From the NCBI RefSeq assembly GCF_003334315.1, contig NZ_QOWR01000050.1: 34,162 bases of DNA; one strand, given 5' to 3'. Every line of letters starts with the position of its first letter. The first letter of the stretch is position 1. Under the pieces are notes generated by a model. The model searched no databases, was not told the origin of the DNA, and saw only the letters and a list, made by a program, of their open reading frames with translations. Source of the stretch: Escherichia coli. GTDB taxonomy: Bacteria > Pseudomonadota > Gammaproteobacteria > Enterobacterales > Enterobacteriaceae. Both the position numbers and the translations under genes were made by a program. This document shows, piece after piece, positions 1 through 6,395 of this stretch.

Positions 1-81
1 AAGTCGCTGTCGTTCTCAAAATCGGTGGAGCTGCATGACAAAGTCATCGGGCATTATCTGAACATAAAACACTATCAATAA
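1..81 (+). CDS. insB: IS1 transposase InsB, C-terminal 26 codons (5'-partial; runs off window start)
   Basis: Frame 1 from base 1 translates KSLSFSKSVELHDKVIGHYLNIKHYQ then TAA at 79-81, the InsB C-terminus. Confidence 0.85.
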   Translation, partial: KSLSFSKSVELHDKVIGHYLNIKHYQ

Positions 82-96
82 GTTGGAGTCATTACC
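1..96 (+). mobile_element. IS1 insertion sequence, 3'-terminal 96 bp (insB 3' end plus right terminal inverted repeat); element continues beyond window start
   Basis: Bases 1-96 read AAGTCGCTGTCGTTCTCAAAATCGGTGGAGCTGCATGACAAAGTCATCGGGCATTATCTGAACATAAAACACTATCAATAAGTTGGAGTCATTACC, which matches the IS1 right end as I recall it, ending in the terminal repeat ...GGAGTCATTACC at 85-96. Confidence 0.9.
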
Positions 97-901
97 CAGG
101 CTGGTAACCCAATTGCTGATCGGTCAACTCCAGAATCTCATTGTCAGGCATATATCTCGCCATACTTTCAATCGTTTGTTCATCATTGCTATTAATAAGT
201 TGTTTGCGTAGGTTAGCTGAAATTCCTTTAAGCCTTGGGAGAGTTCGGATTATGGCAAGATCAAATGTCGCAATATCTCGTCCTTCAAATGCAGCAACGT
301 TGCCTTCATCCAGCATTTGCAATTCCTGCACTAACTCAGGAGAAGGCTTAGGGCGAAACAGCGCTTCTTTTTTCATCTGATTACAGACATTCCCTGCCAT
401 GCGAATATTGCTTCGCTTAAAAATTTCTTTCAGAGCATCTTCATCATTTATTAGACCCCAATAATATGCATCAGGATTTATTATCATCAGCGCTTTTTTG
501 ACATTTTCAGTGTCATGTTTGTCACTCGCACGGACCATGAATTCACTATTTGTCGAAGACGCAACAACAGGTGCAATTATGTCATTGATAAATATCCCAC
601 GCGCATTAATACTCCCCTTAATCGTAGACGGATTATCGTAATATGAGTCGATAAATACCAGTCCACTTGCATTTATCGAACCGGTAATTAACAGTGGTGA
701 ATCCGCAACTATATTCGTTGCCGTCACGTTACCGAGAATAACCCATGGATTAGAAAGAGAGAAAGTGGAAATATTACCTTTGACTGTCAAATTCCCAAGA
801 ACAATCAATTTTTGATTACTCTCTATATTACCTTCTACCACTAAATCGCCACGATGCACTTTCCAGTTCGATGCAGATAAACCGAAGGGGACAAGATTCA
901 C
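92..901 (-). pseudogene. IS1-truncated ORF encoding an unrecognised repeat-rich (possibly beta-solenoid-like) protein, in the position K-12 ydbD occupies downstream of ydbC; 269 codons as drawn from a GTG at 899-901
   Basis: The ORF reads from 901 down to 97, and its TAA stop (92-94) lies inside the IS1 terminal repeat, so the coding sequence is cut by the insertion. There is no in-frame ATG before codon ~122 and no convincing ribosome-binding site at the GTG. An out-of-frame signal-peptide-like mini-ORF with a good site lies upstream (see findings). I do not recognise the protein by sequence; the assignment is by synteny only. Confidence 0.5.
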
Positions 902-1100
902 GCTACTGTTGATAGCTTGTTCAACTTGTTGTTTATCTTCAGCGGTAGCCGCAGAAAAAATTGTTCAATATCAACTGCATTTGCAACACATCGAAGTTCC
1001 GCCTATACTGGAAGACTCAGCATAAACAGGGGAAGTAAACCTATCCAGCCGCAAATCCTGGCCTTAAACATATGCACTCCATGCCATTAAAAAAGAAACA

Positions 1101-1124
1101 AAAGGGAAATGCATCTTTCCCTTT
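1101..1124 (-). terminator. Rho-independent terminator downstream of ydbC
   Basis: Inverted repeat AAAGGGAAA (1101-1109) / TTTCCCTTT (1116-1124) with a 6-nt loop; on the minus strand the hairpin is followed by a U-rich run (from the A-run at about 1088-1100). Confidence 0.6.
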
Positions 1125-1134
1125 TGTATATTCG

Positions 1135-1995
1135 TTATTCTCGCGAAATACCATCCAACGTAGACAACACTTCCTCAGAAAGTTGCAATTTTTCAGCAGC
1201 CATATTCTCCCGTAAATGCGCAACCGAAGACGTCCCTGGGATCAGCAAAATATTCGGTGAACGCTGTAACAGCCACGCCAGCGCCACCTGCATTGGTGTT
1301 GCACCCAGGCTCGCAGCAACATCGGAAAGTGTGGACGATTGCAGCGGTGTAAAGCCCCCGAGCGGGAAGAACGGCACGTAGGCAATGCCATCGTGGGCCA
1401 AAGCATCAATCATTGCATCATCAGCACGGTGCGCGATGTTGTATTCGTTTTGCACACAGACAATTTCGGCAATCTTGCGCGCCTCTGCAACCTGCGTCGG
1501 TGTGACGTTGCTCAGGCCAATATGTTTTACCAGGCCTTGTTGTTGCATCTCTGCCAGCACGGTCAGGCTGGCCTCAATCGATCCTTCCGCTGGGCCATGA
1601 CCATCCCCCATCATAACGCGCAGGTTAACCACATCCAGCACGTCCAGCCCGAGATTACGTAGATTATCGTGCACCGCTTTTTGCAGCTCTGCCGGAGAAA
1701 ATGCGGGCAACCAGGATGCGTCCTCTCCACGCCGCGCACCAATTTTAGTGACAATTGTCAGGTCGTCAGAGTAAGGATAAAGCGCTTCGCGGATAATCTG
1801 ATTGGTGACGTGCGGACCATAAAAGTCGCTGGTATCAATATGATTGACGCCCAATGCCAGCGCCTCACGCAGCACGGTTATAGCGACGTGGCGATCTCGT
1901 GGGGGGCCAAAAACTCCAGGACCTGCCAGTTGCATCGCGCCATAACCAAGACGGTTAACGGATTTTGTACCGAGAGTAAATGTGTTGCTGCTCAT
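1135..1995 (-). CDS. ydbC: Aldo/keto reductase family oxidoreductase YdbC (286 aa)
   Basis: 286-aa ORF starting MSSNTFTLGTKSVNRLGYGAMQLAGPG, typical of the aldo-keto reductase family; same length and position relative to paaY as K-12 ydbC. Confidence 0.8.
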   Translation of the reverse strand: MSSNTFTLGTKSVNRLGYGAMQLAGPGVFGPPRDRHVAITVLREALALGVNHIDTSDFYGPHVTNQIIREALYPYSDDLTIVTKIGARRGEDASWLPAFSPAELQKAVHDNLRNLGLDVLDVVNLRVMMGDGHGPAEGSIEASLTVLAEMQQQGLVKHIGLSNVTPTQVAEARKIAEIVCVQNEYNIAHRADDAMIDALAHDGIAYVPFFPLGGFTPLQSSTLSDVAASLGATPMQVALAWLLQRSPNILLIPGTSSVAHLRENMAAEKLQLSEEVLSTLDGISRE

Positions 1996-2125
1996 CGCAC
2001 CCTGCCCTGTAATAAAACGGATTAAGAAAAATCAGTATAGAAACGAAAAGAGATAAATAATGCGAAGGTGTAAACAAGATTACTGGATGAGTTGCTCTGT
2101 TATCCTGAAAGACACCAAAACAAAA

Positions 2126-2149
2126 CGCGTCAAGCGCCGCATCCGGCAA
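2126..2149. repeat. REP-like (repetitive extragenic palindrome) fragment
   Basis: Minus-strand reading GCCGGATGCGGCGCTTGACGCG shares its first 13 nt with the REP consensus GCCGGATGCGGCG... as I recall it; intergenic location between convergent/tandem genes. Confidence 0.35.
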
Positions 2150-2150
2150 T

Positions 2151-2181
2151 AAAAAAACCGCAACCTGTATCAGCGTTGCGG
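2151..2181 (-). terminator. Rho-independent terminator after paaY (end of the paa transcription unit)
   Basis: Stem CCGCAAC (2158-2164) / GTTGCGG (2175-2181); on the minus strand it is followed by U7 (the A7 run at 2151-2157). Lies 46 bp downstream of the paaY stop. Confidence 0.7.
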
Positions 2182-2226
2182 TTTAGGGATCACATGCTAA
2201 AAATTAGAACGTCCAGCATCAGGACG

Positions 2227-2817
2227 TTACTGTTTCGGTCGCAGATTCTCATCAAATACCAGGCGTTTCCTGCCAGGTTCAATTTCCCGCAATGGCTCGA
2301 CTTGATGTAACGTCTGCTTACAGCGTGTCACCAGCACCTGATACTCATGCGTACCCTGCTTTTTCCATGCCAGCTCCTGCTCACTAAGTTCACGAATCGC
2401 TTTCGCCGGGCTGCCGACAATCAGGTAATTAGCAGGCATTTCTGCTTTGGCTTTCACAAATGCGGATGCGCCAACAATGCTGTTCTCGCCAATCACCGCA
2501 CCGTCCATCACTACCGCGTTCATTCCCACTAATGCATTGCGGCGGATAATGCAGCCGTGAAGGATAGCGCTATGACCAATATGTCCATCTTCTTCAACGA
2601 CAGTATCCTGCTCGGGAAAACCGTGCATAACGCAATTATCCTGAATGTTCGCGCCATCTTTCACCACGATACGACCAAAATCGCCACGCAGACTGGCATT
2701 TGGCCCAACGTAAACGCCCTTGCCGAGAATAACATCGCCGATCAATACCGCTGTCGGATGGACAAAACTCTCTTCTGGCACAACCGGAGTCAGACCGTCT
2801 ATCTGATAAATTGGCAT
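2227..2817 (-). CDS. paaY: Phenylacetate degradation protein PaaY (hexapeptide-repeat, gamma-carbonic-anhydrase-like thioesterase), 196 aa
   Basis: 196-aa ORF with left-handed beta-helix hexapeptide repeats (…[29 protein letters not shown]…); overlaps the paaX 3' end by 19 nt; last gene of the paa cluster. Confidence 0.85.
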
Positions 2818-3749
2818 AACGCCTCCTGTTCAATATTCAAGCCGCCAAAACGTTGAAAATACAGGCTTCCCGGCGCAGGCAGTTCACCGACCGAGGTTTC
2901 ACCTTTTTCACTAACGAACGCTAAAGCAGCAGGCGCTACGCGCTGATAAATGTTGATACACAGCTGACGTGCCGTATGCCCTGCCCAGTGTGCCGGAAGC
3001 AACTCCTCCGGCAACAATGGGTCTTTAAGGACGACACGGCGATAAAAATGGATCAGTAAAAGCTGAATATGAAATGCCCGCTCCGGGGTTAACTCGTCTG
3101 CCGCCTCTTTTAACAGCGGCACCAGCGGGCGGAATGACTGAATAAAGGTTTCGTACATGGCATTTTGTTCAGTTAAATGCCAGCACTCTTCTACTCTGGC
3201 ACGCAGTGCTGCGCGAGAAAGCGCCAGTGGTATTTGCGCTTCAAAACAAATCACGTTATCCGCCACCCCCGCTTCATGCAAAAGTGCCTGTACATCGGCC
3301 AGTTTTTGCGACGGCGATGCCATCAGGCTGGGTGCCAGTGCGCCAAAACCTTGCCAGATCAACTGCTTTTTGACATCAGCCAGCGTCGTTTTATCTAAAC
3401 CTTCCGAGAGCAACAGGAGCCATTTACCATCCCATGCAGGTTGCTCTGCGCGATAAATTTTACTTTCTGCCCGTCGCGTCAGGCGCAAGCCTTTATCACT
3501 GAGGCTATAGAAACTGCGTCGCCCGATGCGGGAAACATCCAGCCAGCCTTCTTTATTAAGACGAAACAAAGCGGTGCGCACGAAACGCTCACCAAATCCC
3601 AGCCCTTCCAGCAAAGCAGCCAGACTACCCAACCAGATTTCACCACCACGATGGGAAAGCGAATCACCATACAGAGAGGAGATCAAAGATGTGCCACTGA
3701 CCGGAACAGCGTTTACAGCATGTTGGATAAAAGTATCAAGTTTACTCAT
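2799..3749 (-). CDS. paaX: Phenylacetyl-CoA-responsive transcriptional repressor PaaX, 316 aa
   Basis: 316-aa ORF ([31 protein letters not shown]…) immediately upstream of paaY and downstream of paaK, the position and length of PaaX. Confidence 0.85.
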
Positions 3750-3810
3750 TCGCTTCAGTCTGTTGTTATTGTTGTGATTTATGAATCATAGCACAGGTCG
3801 TATCGACTTC

Positions 3811-3840
3811 TGGCCCTGGCGCTTTACCCCACCAGGGCCA
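3811..3840 (-). other. Stem-loop in the paaK-paaX intergenic region (9-bp stem, 12-nt loop, no U-tract)
   Basis: TGGCCCTGG (3811-3819) / CCAGGGCCA (3832-3840) are a perfect inverted repeat lying 10 nt after the paaK stop on the minus strand. Confidence 0.4.
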
Positions 3841-3849
3841 GACGATACG

Positions 3850-5163
3850 TCAGGCACCAACAATATTGCGCAGATCAAACACCCGACACGCCTTGCCTTC
3901 TGAACGCGGGATACTGCCACAGTTAACGATCATCACATCGGTAGAGATCCCCACCATCGACTTAATCCGATGGCGCAGCTGGTGGCATACCTGGCAACGC
4001 TGCTCATGCGTCAATGTCAGGCTACTTTCTTTCAACTCCACTTTCACAGAAAGTGAATCAAGATGCCCCCGGCGGTTCACCTCCAGTTGGTAATGCGGCG
4101 ATAAATGTTCGAATTTGACAATCTCTTCTTCCAGTTGTGACGGAAAGACATTTACACCGCGAATAATCAACATGTCATCGCTGCGTCCGCTGATGCGATC
4201 CATGCGGCGCATAGTCCGCGCCGTTCCTGGTAACAGTCGGGTTAAATCACGCGTGCGGTAACGAATGACCGGCAATGCTTCTTTGGTCAGCGTGGTGAAT
4301 AACAGTTCGCCATGTTCACCATCGGCAAGCGGTGTGCCGTCATGAGGATTAACAATTTCAGGATAGAAATGATCTTCCCAAATGGTTGGGCCGTCGGTAG
4401 TTTCCAGACACTCCATCGCCACCCCCGGCCCCATCACTTCTGACAGGCCATAAATATCCAGTGCGGTGATCCCCAGGCGACGCTCAATCTCTTTACGCAT
4501 GGCCTGTGTCCACGGCTCAGCACCAAATACTCCAACCCGCAGCGAGCAACCGCTGGCATCACCGCCCAACTGCCGCTCCAGCTCTTCAATCAGGTTAAGG
4601 CAATAAGATGGCGTAACCATGATCATATCTGGTTGAAAATCACGGATCAGTTGCGCTTGTTTTTCCGTCTGCCCGCCAGACATCGGGATCACCGTAGCGC
4701 CCAGACGTTCGGCACCATAGTGCGCACCCAGCCCACCAGTAAACAGGCCGTAACCATAGGCAACATGAATTTTGTCTTTGGGCGAGCCCCCTGCCGCACG
4801 CAAAGAACGCGCTACAATATTGGCCCAGTTATCAATATCGTTTTGCGTATAGCCGACAACTGTCGGTTTACCTGTGGTTCCCGAAGAAGCATGAATGCGC
4901 ACCACTTGTTCCATTGGCACGGCAAAGGTGTCAAAGGGATAGTTGTCGCGCAGATCCTGTTTGGTGGTACAGGGAAATTTACGCAGGTCTGAAAGTTCCC
5001 TGAAATCATCAGGATGTACGCCTGCTGCGTCGAATTTGCGCCGATACATCGGCACATTTTCATACGCGTGTTTGAGCGTCCATTTCAGACGCTGTGTTTG
5101 CAACGCCTGTAACTCATCAACAGACGCGGTTTCAATCGGGTCAAGCTTTGTATTGGTTATCAT
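3850..5163 (-). CDS. paaK: Phenylacetate-CoA ligase PaaK, 437 aa
   Basis: Adenylate-forming enzyme motif SSGTTGKPT is present. The track ORF (3850..5247) is over-extended; I trimmed it to the internal start MITNTKLDPIETASVDELQ, giving 437 aa. Confidence 0.85.
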   Translation of the reverse strand: MITNTKLDPIETASVDELQALQTQRLKWTLKHAYENVPMYRRKFDAAGVHPDDFRELSDLRKFPCTTKQDLRDNYPFDTFAVPMEQVVRIHASSGTTGKPTVVGYTQNDIDNWANIVARSLRAAGGSPKDKIHVAYGYGLFTGGLGAHYGAERLGATVIPMSGGQTEKQAQLIRDFQPDMIMVTPSYCLNLIEELERQLGGDASGCSLRVGVFGAEPWTQAMRKEIERRLGITALDIYGLSEVMGPGVAMECLETTDGPTIWEDHFYPEIVNPHDGTPLADGEHGELLFTTLTKEALPVIRYRTRDLTRLLPGTARTMRRMDRISGRSDDMLIIRGVNVFPSQLEEEIVKFEHLSPHYQLEVNRRGHLDSLSVKVELKESSLTLTHEQRCQVCHQLRHRIKSMVGISTDVMIVNCGSIPRSEGKACRVFDLRNIVGA

Positions 5164-5189
5164 TGTAGGGTACTCGCAGGTTGATATGC

Positions 5190-6395
5190 TCAAACACGCT
5201 CCAGAATCATGGCGATGCCCTGACCGACACCGATGCACATGGTGCACAATGCGTAACGACCGTTACGCCGATGCAGCTCATGGCTGGCAGCCAGTGCCAG
5301 GCGGGCACCACTCATTCCCAACGGATGGCCTAAGGCGATAGCGCCTCCGTTGGGGTTAACATGTGGGGCATCATCAGGCAGCCCCAATTCGCGTAGTACA
5401 CCCAACGCCTGGGCCGCGAACGCTTCGTTCAGTTCAATCACGTCCATATCGTGAATACTCAGCCCTGCGCGTTCCAGCACCCGGCGAGTTGCAGGCACCG
5501 GACCAAGTCCCATCAGGCGCGGTTCCACCCCGGCGGTTGCCATGGCTACGATACGCGCCCGCGGTGTCAGTCCTTGCGCTGCTGCCATCTGTTCACTGGC
5601 AATAATCAACGCAGCGGCTCCGTCATTCACCCCGGAAGCATTGCCTGCGGTAATCACCCCATTGGCACGAAATGGTGCTTTTAACCCACGTAACTGTTCC
5701 AGCGTCGTTTCCGGGCGCAGATGCTCATCATGTTGTATTTCTGTTACAACACCTTTCTTGTTTTTCAACACAACCGGAACAATCTCCTCAGCCAGAATGC
5801 CTGAGGATTGCGCTTTTGCCGTACGTTGCTGACTGCGTAGCGCAAAACTATCTTGATCTTCTCGTGAGATTTTTAACAGTTCAGCTACATTCTCTGCCGT
5901 TTCCGGCATGCTGTCAGTTCCAAATTGCTGAGCCATGAGCGGGTTCACAAATCGCCAGCCAATAGTGGTATCGAACATCTCAGCCTGACGAGAAAATGCA
6001 CTGGCTGCCTTGCCCATAACAAACGGTGCCCGTGACATTGACTCCACGCCACCGGCGATCAGCAAATCGCCATCGCCCGCTTTAATCGCCCGTGCGGCAA
6101 ACCCCAGTGCGTCCAGCCCGGAACCACACAAGCGGTTAATGGTTGTGCCGGAAACACTCTGCGGCAGCCCCGCCAGTAAAGTCGCCATCCGGGCTACGTT
6201 ACGGTTATCTTCTCCCGCCTGATTAGCACAGCCGAGGATCACATCATCGATACACTCCGCATCGAGACGCGGGTTTCGCACCAGCAGTTCCCGCAAAGGG
6301 ATAGCAGCCAGATCATCAGCCCGAACACTTGATAATGCCCCGCCGTAGCGACCAATTGGCGTACGAATTCCGTCACAAATAAAGGCTTCACGCAT
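5190..6395 (-). CDS. paaJ: 3-oxoadipyl-CoA / 3-oxo-5,6-dehydrosuberyl-CoA thiolase PaaJ, 401 aa
   Basis: Thiolase fold with active-site Cys region [10 protein letters not shown] and C-terminal CIGVGQG; start codon overlaps the paaI stop (ATGA). Confidence 0.9.

Follow-up and report, generated by a model that had tools for sequence, protein, structure and literature searches.

The closest described counterpart of the locus considered here is the paaY-ynbG-ydbA::IS2::IS30-pdxI region of Escherichia coli K-12 MG1655 (b1400 to b1406), in which paaY and pdxI (formerly ydbC) are separated by 9,159 bp (1465062 to 1474220, with paaY ending at 1465061 and pdxI starting at 1474221). This interval holds ynbG and the pseudogene ydbA, the latter as three fragments with IS2D and IS30C between them. 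The family of ydbA is that of the BigA-type autotransporter adhesins (NF033178, Salmonella BigA), within which E. coli YdbA is BigA-like and not an equivalog: the intact ST131 protein (2,838 aa) scores 1,646 bits against the NCBIfam model auto_BigA (NF033178), for which the curated equivalog cutoff is 3,400. The K-12 paaY/ydbA intergenic region is listed as an H-NS-bound 'promoter island' (PMC3661553). Variable carriage of ydbA beside paa has already been published: among 533 phylogroup A genomes about 80% carried paaY and about 42% a full-length ydbA, ydbA carriage being uncoupled from paa carriage and the block between ydbL and ynbC being a mosaic 'region of genomic heterogeneity' (Goldstone et al., 2016, Sci Rep 6:30115, PMC4951805). 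That survey stays at the level of gene presence and absence, and the junction sequence, the polarity of the change and the remnant are not given there.

We analysed a stretch of 34,162 nucleotides from E. coli (contig NZ_QOWR01000050.1 of assembly GCF_003334315.1; 'the window' below), in which the same two genes lie exactly 231 bp apart. The earlier note on this DNA, written from its letters alone, had given this distance and had described a K-12 map with ydbA, split by IS2 and IS30, between the two genes, and it was right on both counts. Where it erred was in treating the short gap as a peculiarity of this lineage, since paaY and pdxI are found together in one contiguous place, in the same compact arrangement, in 2,035 of 5,426 complete E. 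coli genomes (37.5%). The compact gap is an ordinary, common gene-content polymorphism.

The paaY-pdxI spacer compared with K-12

The flanking genes, their order and their strand are the same as in K-12, with the window running in reverse relative to the K-12 map and both genes on one strand. At the DNA level pdxI is 99.8% identical to its K-12 counterpart (b1406) and paaY 98.5% (b1400); in the genome of CP53, a sequence identical to that of the window pdxI carries the RefSeq annotation pdxI. Collinearity with K-12 extends over 97..2212, from ydbD via pdxI up to the final 9 nt of ydbA, and again over 2226..5788, from the first base past paaY back to paaJ. The features of the interval and its borders are:

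1135..1995, minus strand: pdxI, pyridoxine 4-dehydrogenase / aldo-keto reductase, an intact 286-aa ORF in the ORF listing
1996..2203, minus strand: homologous to the 207 bp that separate ydbA and pdxI in K-12 (L001:12515-12721), with 96.6% identity over 208 nt
about 2126..2148, minus strand: REP-like half-site TGCCGGATGCGGCGCTTGACGCG, its usual second half missing, read directly from the sequence and the K-12 alignment
2151..2184, minus strand: intrinsic-terminator-like hairpin, AAACCGCAAC...GTTGCGGTTT followed by U7, with a 10+3-bp stem (-16.6 kcal/mol, z -3.9)
2204..2212, minus strand: ACGTTCTAA, the final two codons of ydbA with the stop, a clear remnant of that gene
2208..2228, minus strand: hairpin AACGTCC-N7-GGACGTT with a perfect stem of 7 bp, which crosses the junction and overlaps the stop of paaY; a terminator-like scanner match
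2213..2225, minus strand: deletion junction of 13 nt, GTCCTGATGCTGG, matched by neither K-12 flank in local alignment
2226, minus strand: one base (C on this strand) following the paaY stop codon; beyond it the K-12 sequence downstream of paaY is no longer matched, which puts the left breakpoint here
2227..2817, minus strand: paaY, an intact 196-aa ORF in the ORF listing

The whole spacer (1996..2226) is explained by K-12 homology except for the 13 junction bases. Compared with K-12, the window lacks about 8.9 kb, made up of ynbG, the promoter-island intergenic region with the native paaY terminator, ydbA and both IS elements, while the pdxI-proximal intergenic region, with the ydbA terminator and the REP-like half-site in it, is conserved at the 96.6% given above. 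Of K-12 ydbA only the final 9 nt are unambiguously retained, inside 22 nt that probably derive from the ydbA tail throughout; set against BigA-type genes, this non-coding tail is all that the window keeps. The nine bases are the 3' end of the ydbA ORF, identical in K-12, O157:H7, ST131, O141:H4, IAI39 and Pseudocitrobacter, and encode the conserved C-terminus ...KTF-stop (five E. coli alleles and Pseudocitrobacter). Elsewhere in the window no ydbA coding homology was detected by blastn at E<=1e-3, for which the queries were the ydbA fragments of K-12 and the intact allele of ST131.

On the pdxI side, the homologous region presumably contains the pdxI promoter, and in ydbA-bearing genomes the same stretch adjoins ydbA (matches to positions 1-217 lie under 'autotransporter' annotations). 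The REP-like fragment seen by the earlier note is real: the minus strand at about 2126..2148 carries the first half of the REP consensus (GCCGGATGCGGCG...). The second half (...CTTATCCGGCCTAC), which completes the imperfect palindrome, is missing at this half-site, where the window and K-12 read TTTTGTTTTGGTG and the divergent Escherichia representative L011 reads TTTTATCCGGCCTAC. Full REP units with ...TTATCCGGCCTAC occupy the equivalent place in L011 and in Pseudocitrobacter (L012), and most of the mismatches between the window and K-12 spacers fall around this point. An Rfam scan of 1800..2450 gave no RNA family match at E<=1, a sigma-70 consensus scan of 1850..2400 gave no promoter-like site, and RefSeq annotates nothing within the spacer of compact genomes. 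The two mechanical ORFs that cross the spacer, 2092..2310 (plus strand) and 1955..2149 (minus strand), both overlap the terminator/REP region.

Junction sequence and inherited putative terminator

We read the junction in ten compact genomes: the window, CP53, APEC E956, E2348/69, O111:H8, S1-CAM-02-A, CFSAN004176, 97-3250, EC01307 and RM13752. They fall into four haplotypes, 1-4 substitutions apart, and all ten share the left breakpoint (TAA, then C), the GTCC that follows it, the length and an 11-nt gap. The shared pattern is the paaY TAA, C and GTCC(A/T)GAT(G/A)CTG(A/G)AC(G/A)TTCTAA, which the window matches with TAACGTCCTGATGCTGGACGTTCTAA, and this junction architecture is identical between the window and the other compact haplotypes (for example CP53, O111:H8 1074-2, O103:H2 and E2348/69). 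When a K-12 query covering the paaY end is used, the match in compact genomes is confined to query positions 1-64.

Where do the 13 bases come from then? Aligned with the ydbA tail, GATAAAGGCGTGATGCTGAAC-TTCAAGAAAAC-GTTCTAA, the junction consensus reads TAAC-GTCCAGATGCTGAAC-GTTCTAA. GATGCTGAAC, the form in the other compact alleles, or TGATGCTG, the form in the window, thus reappears in ydbA at a collinear place 11 nt further upstream, and the 11 nt missing between the two AAC repeats are TTCAAGAAAAC. The 13-nt junction is therefore probably what is left of the ydbA tail (GGCGTGATGCTGAAC) after decay and the loss of these 11 nt, as judged from the alignment. A 10-mer shared with the last 36 nt of ydbA arose by chance in 24 of 200,000 shuffles of the 15-mer, while one anywhere in the 8.9-kb deleted interval, on either strand, arose in 7% of shuffles; the remnant reading is therefore likely but depends on the collinear position. 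The junction can be derived exactly from no sampled ydbA-bearing allele, as it has GTCC where ydbA has GGCG, and none of the five E. coli alleles, L011 or Pseudocitrobacter has a ydbA that ends exactly as the junction does. A model of clean joining at a GATG microhomology was also considered and found unsupported, with GTCC after TAAC being absent in K-12, O141:H4, RIVM_C039205, AR_0058 and ST131. Neither at the junction nor in the rest of the spacer is there an IS terminal inverted repeat, a target-site duplication or other foreign sequence.

In the compact strain E2348/69 (L007 3998..4612), the paaY stop codon TAA is mutated to TCA and the ORF runs on into the deletion junction, which gives a paaY of 615 bp in RefSeq rather than 591 bp; this strain has also lost most of the paa operon upstream.

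The strong hairpin at 2151..2184 on the minus strand has the form of a Rho-independent terminator, that is, a GC-rich stem-loop followed by a run of U on the transcribed strand. A simple terminator scanner missed it, presumably through its 8-nt loop limit, and gave the weaker junction hairpin instead. The same strong hairpin lies about 25 nt past the ydbA stop in K-12, O157, ST131, O141 and IAI39, every ydbA-bearing genome inspected, and by this comparison it is ancestrally the putative terminator of ydbA and now the first strong terminator-like structure after paaY. In K-12, paaY has a native terminator of its own about 32-68 nt beyond its stop codon, where a stem of 13 bp leads into a U-rich tail; it sits inside the segment that is missing from the window. 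With that terminator deleted and the one of ydbA retained, paaY transcripts of the compact allele should end at the inherited ydbA terminator. The 'paaY terminator' of the earlier note is thus present as a strong hairpin with U7, but its ancestry lies with ydbA, the terminator that belonged to paaY having been deleted. For annotators this means that the terminator after paaY in compact genomes would be an inheritance from ydbA, and that these genomes have neither ynbG nor the H-NS-bound promoter island.

The second hairpin, across the junction, is followed by CUAAUUUUU and folds at -10.5 kcal/mol in the window against -4.2 in the O111 compact allele. Among the ten compact genomes read, the perfect stem is found only in the window, CP53 and APEC E956, a sub-haplotype set apart from the other compact alleles by two substitutions, one of which completes the stem (possibly by quasi-palindrome correction) while the other falls in the loop. 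The commonest sampled compact haplotype, unlike these three, is without the perfect hairpin. Since it is not conserved among compact alleles, the junction hairpin is not required.

Distribution and polarity of the compact allele

At least 80% of the spacer is present in 5,114 genomes, which by subtraction leaves about 3,080 where the pdxI-proximal region adjoins something other than paaY. In every sampled non-compact case the ydbA remnant is where the match ends, and a large protein is annotated over that end. The K-12 ydbA 3' end was found by megablast in at least 2,530 genomes, a lower bound with divergent alleles near 80% identity. Going by the strain phylogroups that we assume, ydbA-bearing alleles occur in phylogroups A, B2, E and F, and compact alleles in B1 (O111:H8, O103:H2) and B2 (E2348/69). 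The K-12-like background of the window suggests phylogroup A. CP53 is 100% identical to the window over 1.8 kb and 99.95% identical over 22.8 kb. The flanks of the window show 7 differences in 560 and 5 in 300 from the ydbA-bearing flanks of K-12, against 13-18 from the other compact alleles; being nearer to K-12 than to compact alleles, they indicate that the presence or absence of ydbA has been uncoupled from its flanks by recombination.

The combinations seen are paa with ydbA (K-12), paa without ydbA (the window) and ydbA without paa (O157:H7, IAI39, RIVM_C036204), and the absence of both was seen only in E. albertii. In genomes that lack the fea-tynA-paa block and carry ydbA, such as RIVM_C036204, the region downstream of ydbL is joined to a K-12-type ydbA upstream region. 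This upstream region starts about 14 nt past the would-be paaY stop, which puts the join no more than about 13 nt from the breakpoint of the ydbA deletion (L093 2437..2570; K-12 L001 3563..3580), and a ...GAAACA motif is present on both sides of the join.

Among strains ydbA differs widely in size: the annotated lengths are 5,022, 5,769, 5,880 and 8,517 bp, the K-12 gene without its IS elements measures about 6,063 bp, and in O157:H7 the gene is split into two ORFs. Tandem repeats of about 294 nt inside ydbA show up as multiple offset self-hits. In RefSeq the YdbA protein of about 2,800 aa is labelled 'EntS/YbdA MFS transporter' in several genomes (L004 13017..21533, H36, H67, H73, H74, H78, H79, H91, H103, H104), which looks like a mix-up of the names YdbA and YbdA.

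The earlier note had left open whether ydbA was never acquired here or was lost cleanly. We scanned species-representative genomes with the PdxI protein; among the matches listed there were four close loci, two of them informative on polarity, and the other matches were mostly distant aldo-keto reductases. In Pseudocitrobacter faecalis the order is paaX-paaY-ydbA-ydbC in the same orientation, with an intact ydbA homologue of 1,982 aa and 75-81% nucleotide identity to E. coli throughout the block. In L011, whose ydbC is 87% identical, ydbA lies immediately upstream of ydbC. In E. albertii the region upstream of ydbC directly adjoins ydbL; the entire fea-tynA-paa-ydbA block is absent, which makes this locus uninformative on polarity. 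Kluyvera gave no paaY or ydbA matches upstream of ydbC. Because of this outgroup synteny and because the ydbA stop region is kept in the spacer, we take the compact state to be a derived deletion scar and not a never-occupied site. Of the two options of the earlier note, loss thus stands and failure to acquire falls. The note had also counted ydbA remnants in the spacer as a reason to drop its reading; they are there, but they speak against 'never acquired' only and favour loss. The K-12 map of paaY, ydbA and pdxI represents one common state among several in a mosaic region, and the ydbA-less state is derived, old and widespread.

Origin of the compact allele and the edges of the window

We consider it highly probable (about 0.88) that one old deletion in the chromosome left the 231-bp spacer as its scar, the resulting allele having later spread among E. 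coli by recombination. Such a deletion would have removed ynbG, the AT-rich paaY-ydbA intergenic region (with the paaY terminator and the ydbA promoter region) and nearly all of ydbA, leaving its final 9 nt and probably some further, decayed tail. The sequence comparison shows the breakpoints to within 13 nt. The left one lies 1 nt past the paaY stop codon and the right one most likely about 33 nt before the ydbA end, and the ends would have been joined at an imperfect TAA microhomology of 3 nt at most, which suggests illegitimate, recA-independent recombination rather than an IS or homologous recombination. Afterwards, a slippage loss of 11 nt between the AAC repeats and a few substitutions may have blurred the tail. 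The rest of the spacer is the unchanged ydbA-pdxI intergenic region, and pdxI keeps its own upstream region. One junction architecture is shared by ten genomes, including strains taken to be B1 and B2, an indication of a single old event whose product was then spread by recombination. A single origin does require recombination very close to the junction, as the flanks of the window are closest to those of ydbA-bearing K-12. The deletion allele would have moved in this way across E. coli backgrounds, and it is now found side by side with alleles that carry ydbA, a common polymorphism of gene presence and absence.

The same flanks, which on either side differ little from K-12 as far as the junction, could instead mean that lineages lost ydbA separately and that the one represented by the window did so on its own. 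The boundary of the fea-paa block loss, only about 13 nt away, also hints at a fragile spot. However, the breakpoint, the non-templated GTCC and the 11-nt gap are common to all ten compact alleles inspected, a simple deletion in a K-12-type parent cannot regenerate the shared GTCC and gap, and the sampled compact matches all align across the full spacer of 229-231 nt, all of which makes recurrent independent deletion improbable. We give slightly less credit still to the idea that the compact paaY-pdxI order is the original one and that ydbA and the AT-rich region upstream of it were inserted in other lineages. The patchy carriage of ydbA in a region called heterogeneous (PMC4951805) would agree with this, as would the AT-rich, H-NS-bound 'promoter island' between paaY and ydbA in K-12, a feature often tied to acquired DNA (PMC3661553). 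Nevertheless, the spacer holds the terminal codons and stop of ydbA, and an insertion would need to have borrowed its C-terminus and terminator from pre-existing DNA. In addition, ydbA occupies the same site in Pseudocitrobacter and in the divergent Escherichia, with a divergence similar to that of the flanking genes. It also adjoins pdxI in sampled strains of what we presume to be four phylogroups (A, B2, E and F).

IS elements are an obvious suspect for an adjacent deletion, whether IS1, IS2 or IS30: IS2 and IS30 sit within K-12 ydbA, an IS1 is found in the ydbA of another strain (H81), and the window itself is bounded by two IS1 copies. An IS normally stays in place after an IS-adjacent deletion, though, and in or near the spacer there is no IS end, inverted repeat or target duplication, the sole unassigned 13 nt resembling the ydbA tail instead, so that we hold this origin to be very improbable. 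The 'IS1 scars' of the earlier note do exist as two IS1 ends at the edges of the window, but with no IS end or remnant at the junction nothing ties IS1 to the deletion. Collapse of the repeat-rich ydbA during assembly comes to mind on account of its tandem repeats, which are prone to mis-assembly; it would, however, have spared the unique 5' and 3' parts of ydbA and the 330-bp upstream region, and the identical arrangement recurs in 2,035 complete-level genomes from many laboratories, which leaves an artefact with hardly any probability at all.

A more speculative extension of the single deletion, which we regard as rather unlikely although less so than any of these alternatives, is that the polymorphism is long-lived across phylogroups under selection on a surface adhesin (by phage, immunity or niche) and is not a neutral loss, with the junction hairpin acting as a second terminator that tightens the insulation between paa and pdxI. 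It would draw on the shared old junction in unrelated flanks and on the haplotype-specific hairpin, both read from sequence. Under the preferred reading of one old deletion, the shared junction is a clean single-event marker that may be used for tracing recombination around paa; beyond such bookkeeping, the compact gap matters little.

The remaining observations concern the rest of the window. IS1 is represented by element ends only, at 1..96 and 33959..34162, with terminal ends at 74-96 and 33959-33981. The exact IS1-ydbD junction, as one contiguous piece, was found in no complete E. coli genome of the collection. The ydbD gene (92..1071) is inactivated twice: one nucleotide near 964 is missing in comparison with K-12, which shifts the reading frame around codon 37, and IS1 cuts the gene off after about codon 325. 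The ydbD of CP53 is likewise annotated as frameshifted. At the other edge, 33613..33958 holds the N-terminal fragment (113 aa) of a serine-recombinase-family gene cut by the right-hand IS1; its best NCBIfam matches, Mpi-type invertase and XisF, are all far below their cutoffs. The two IS1 ends are in the same orientation (the right end of an IS1 at 1..96 and the left end of another starting at 33959), and the 33.9-kb segment between them carries ydbD, pdxI, paa, tynA, fea, ydbH, ldhA and nifJ, up to uspF. Flanked by direct IS1 copies, this segment could be deleted or amplified via IS1-IS1 recombination.
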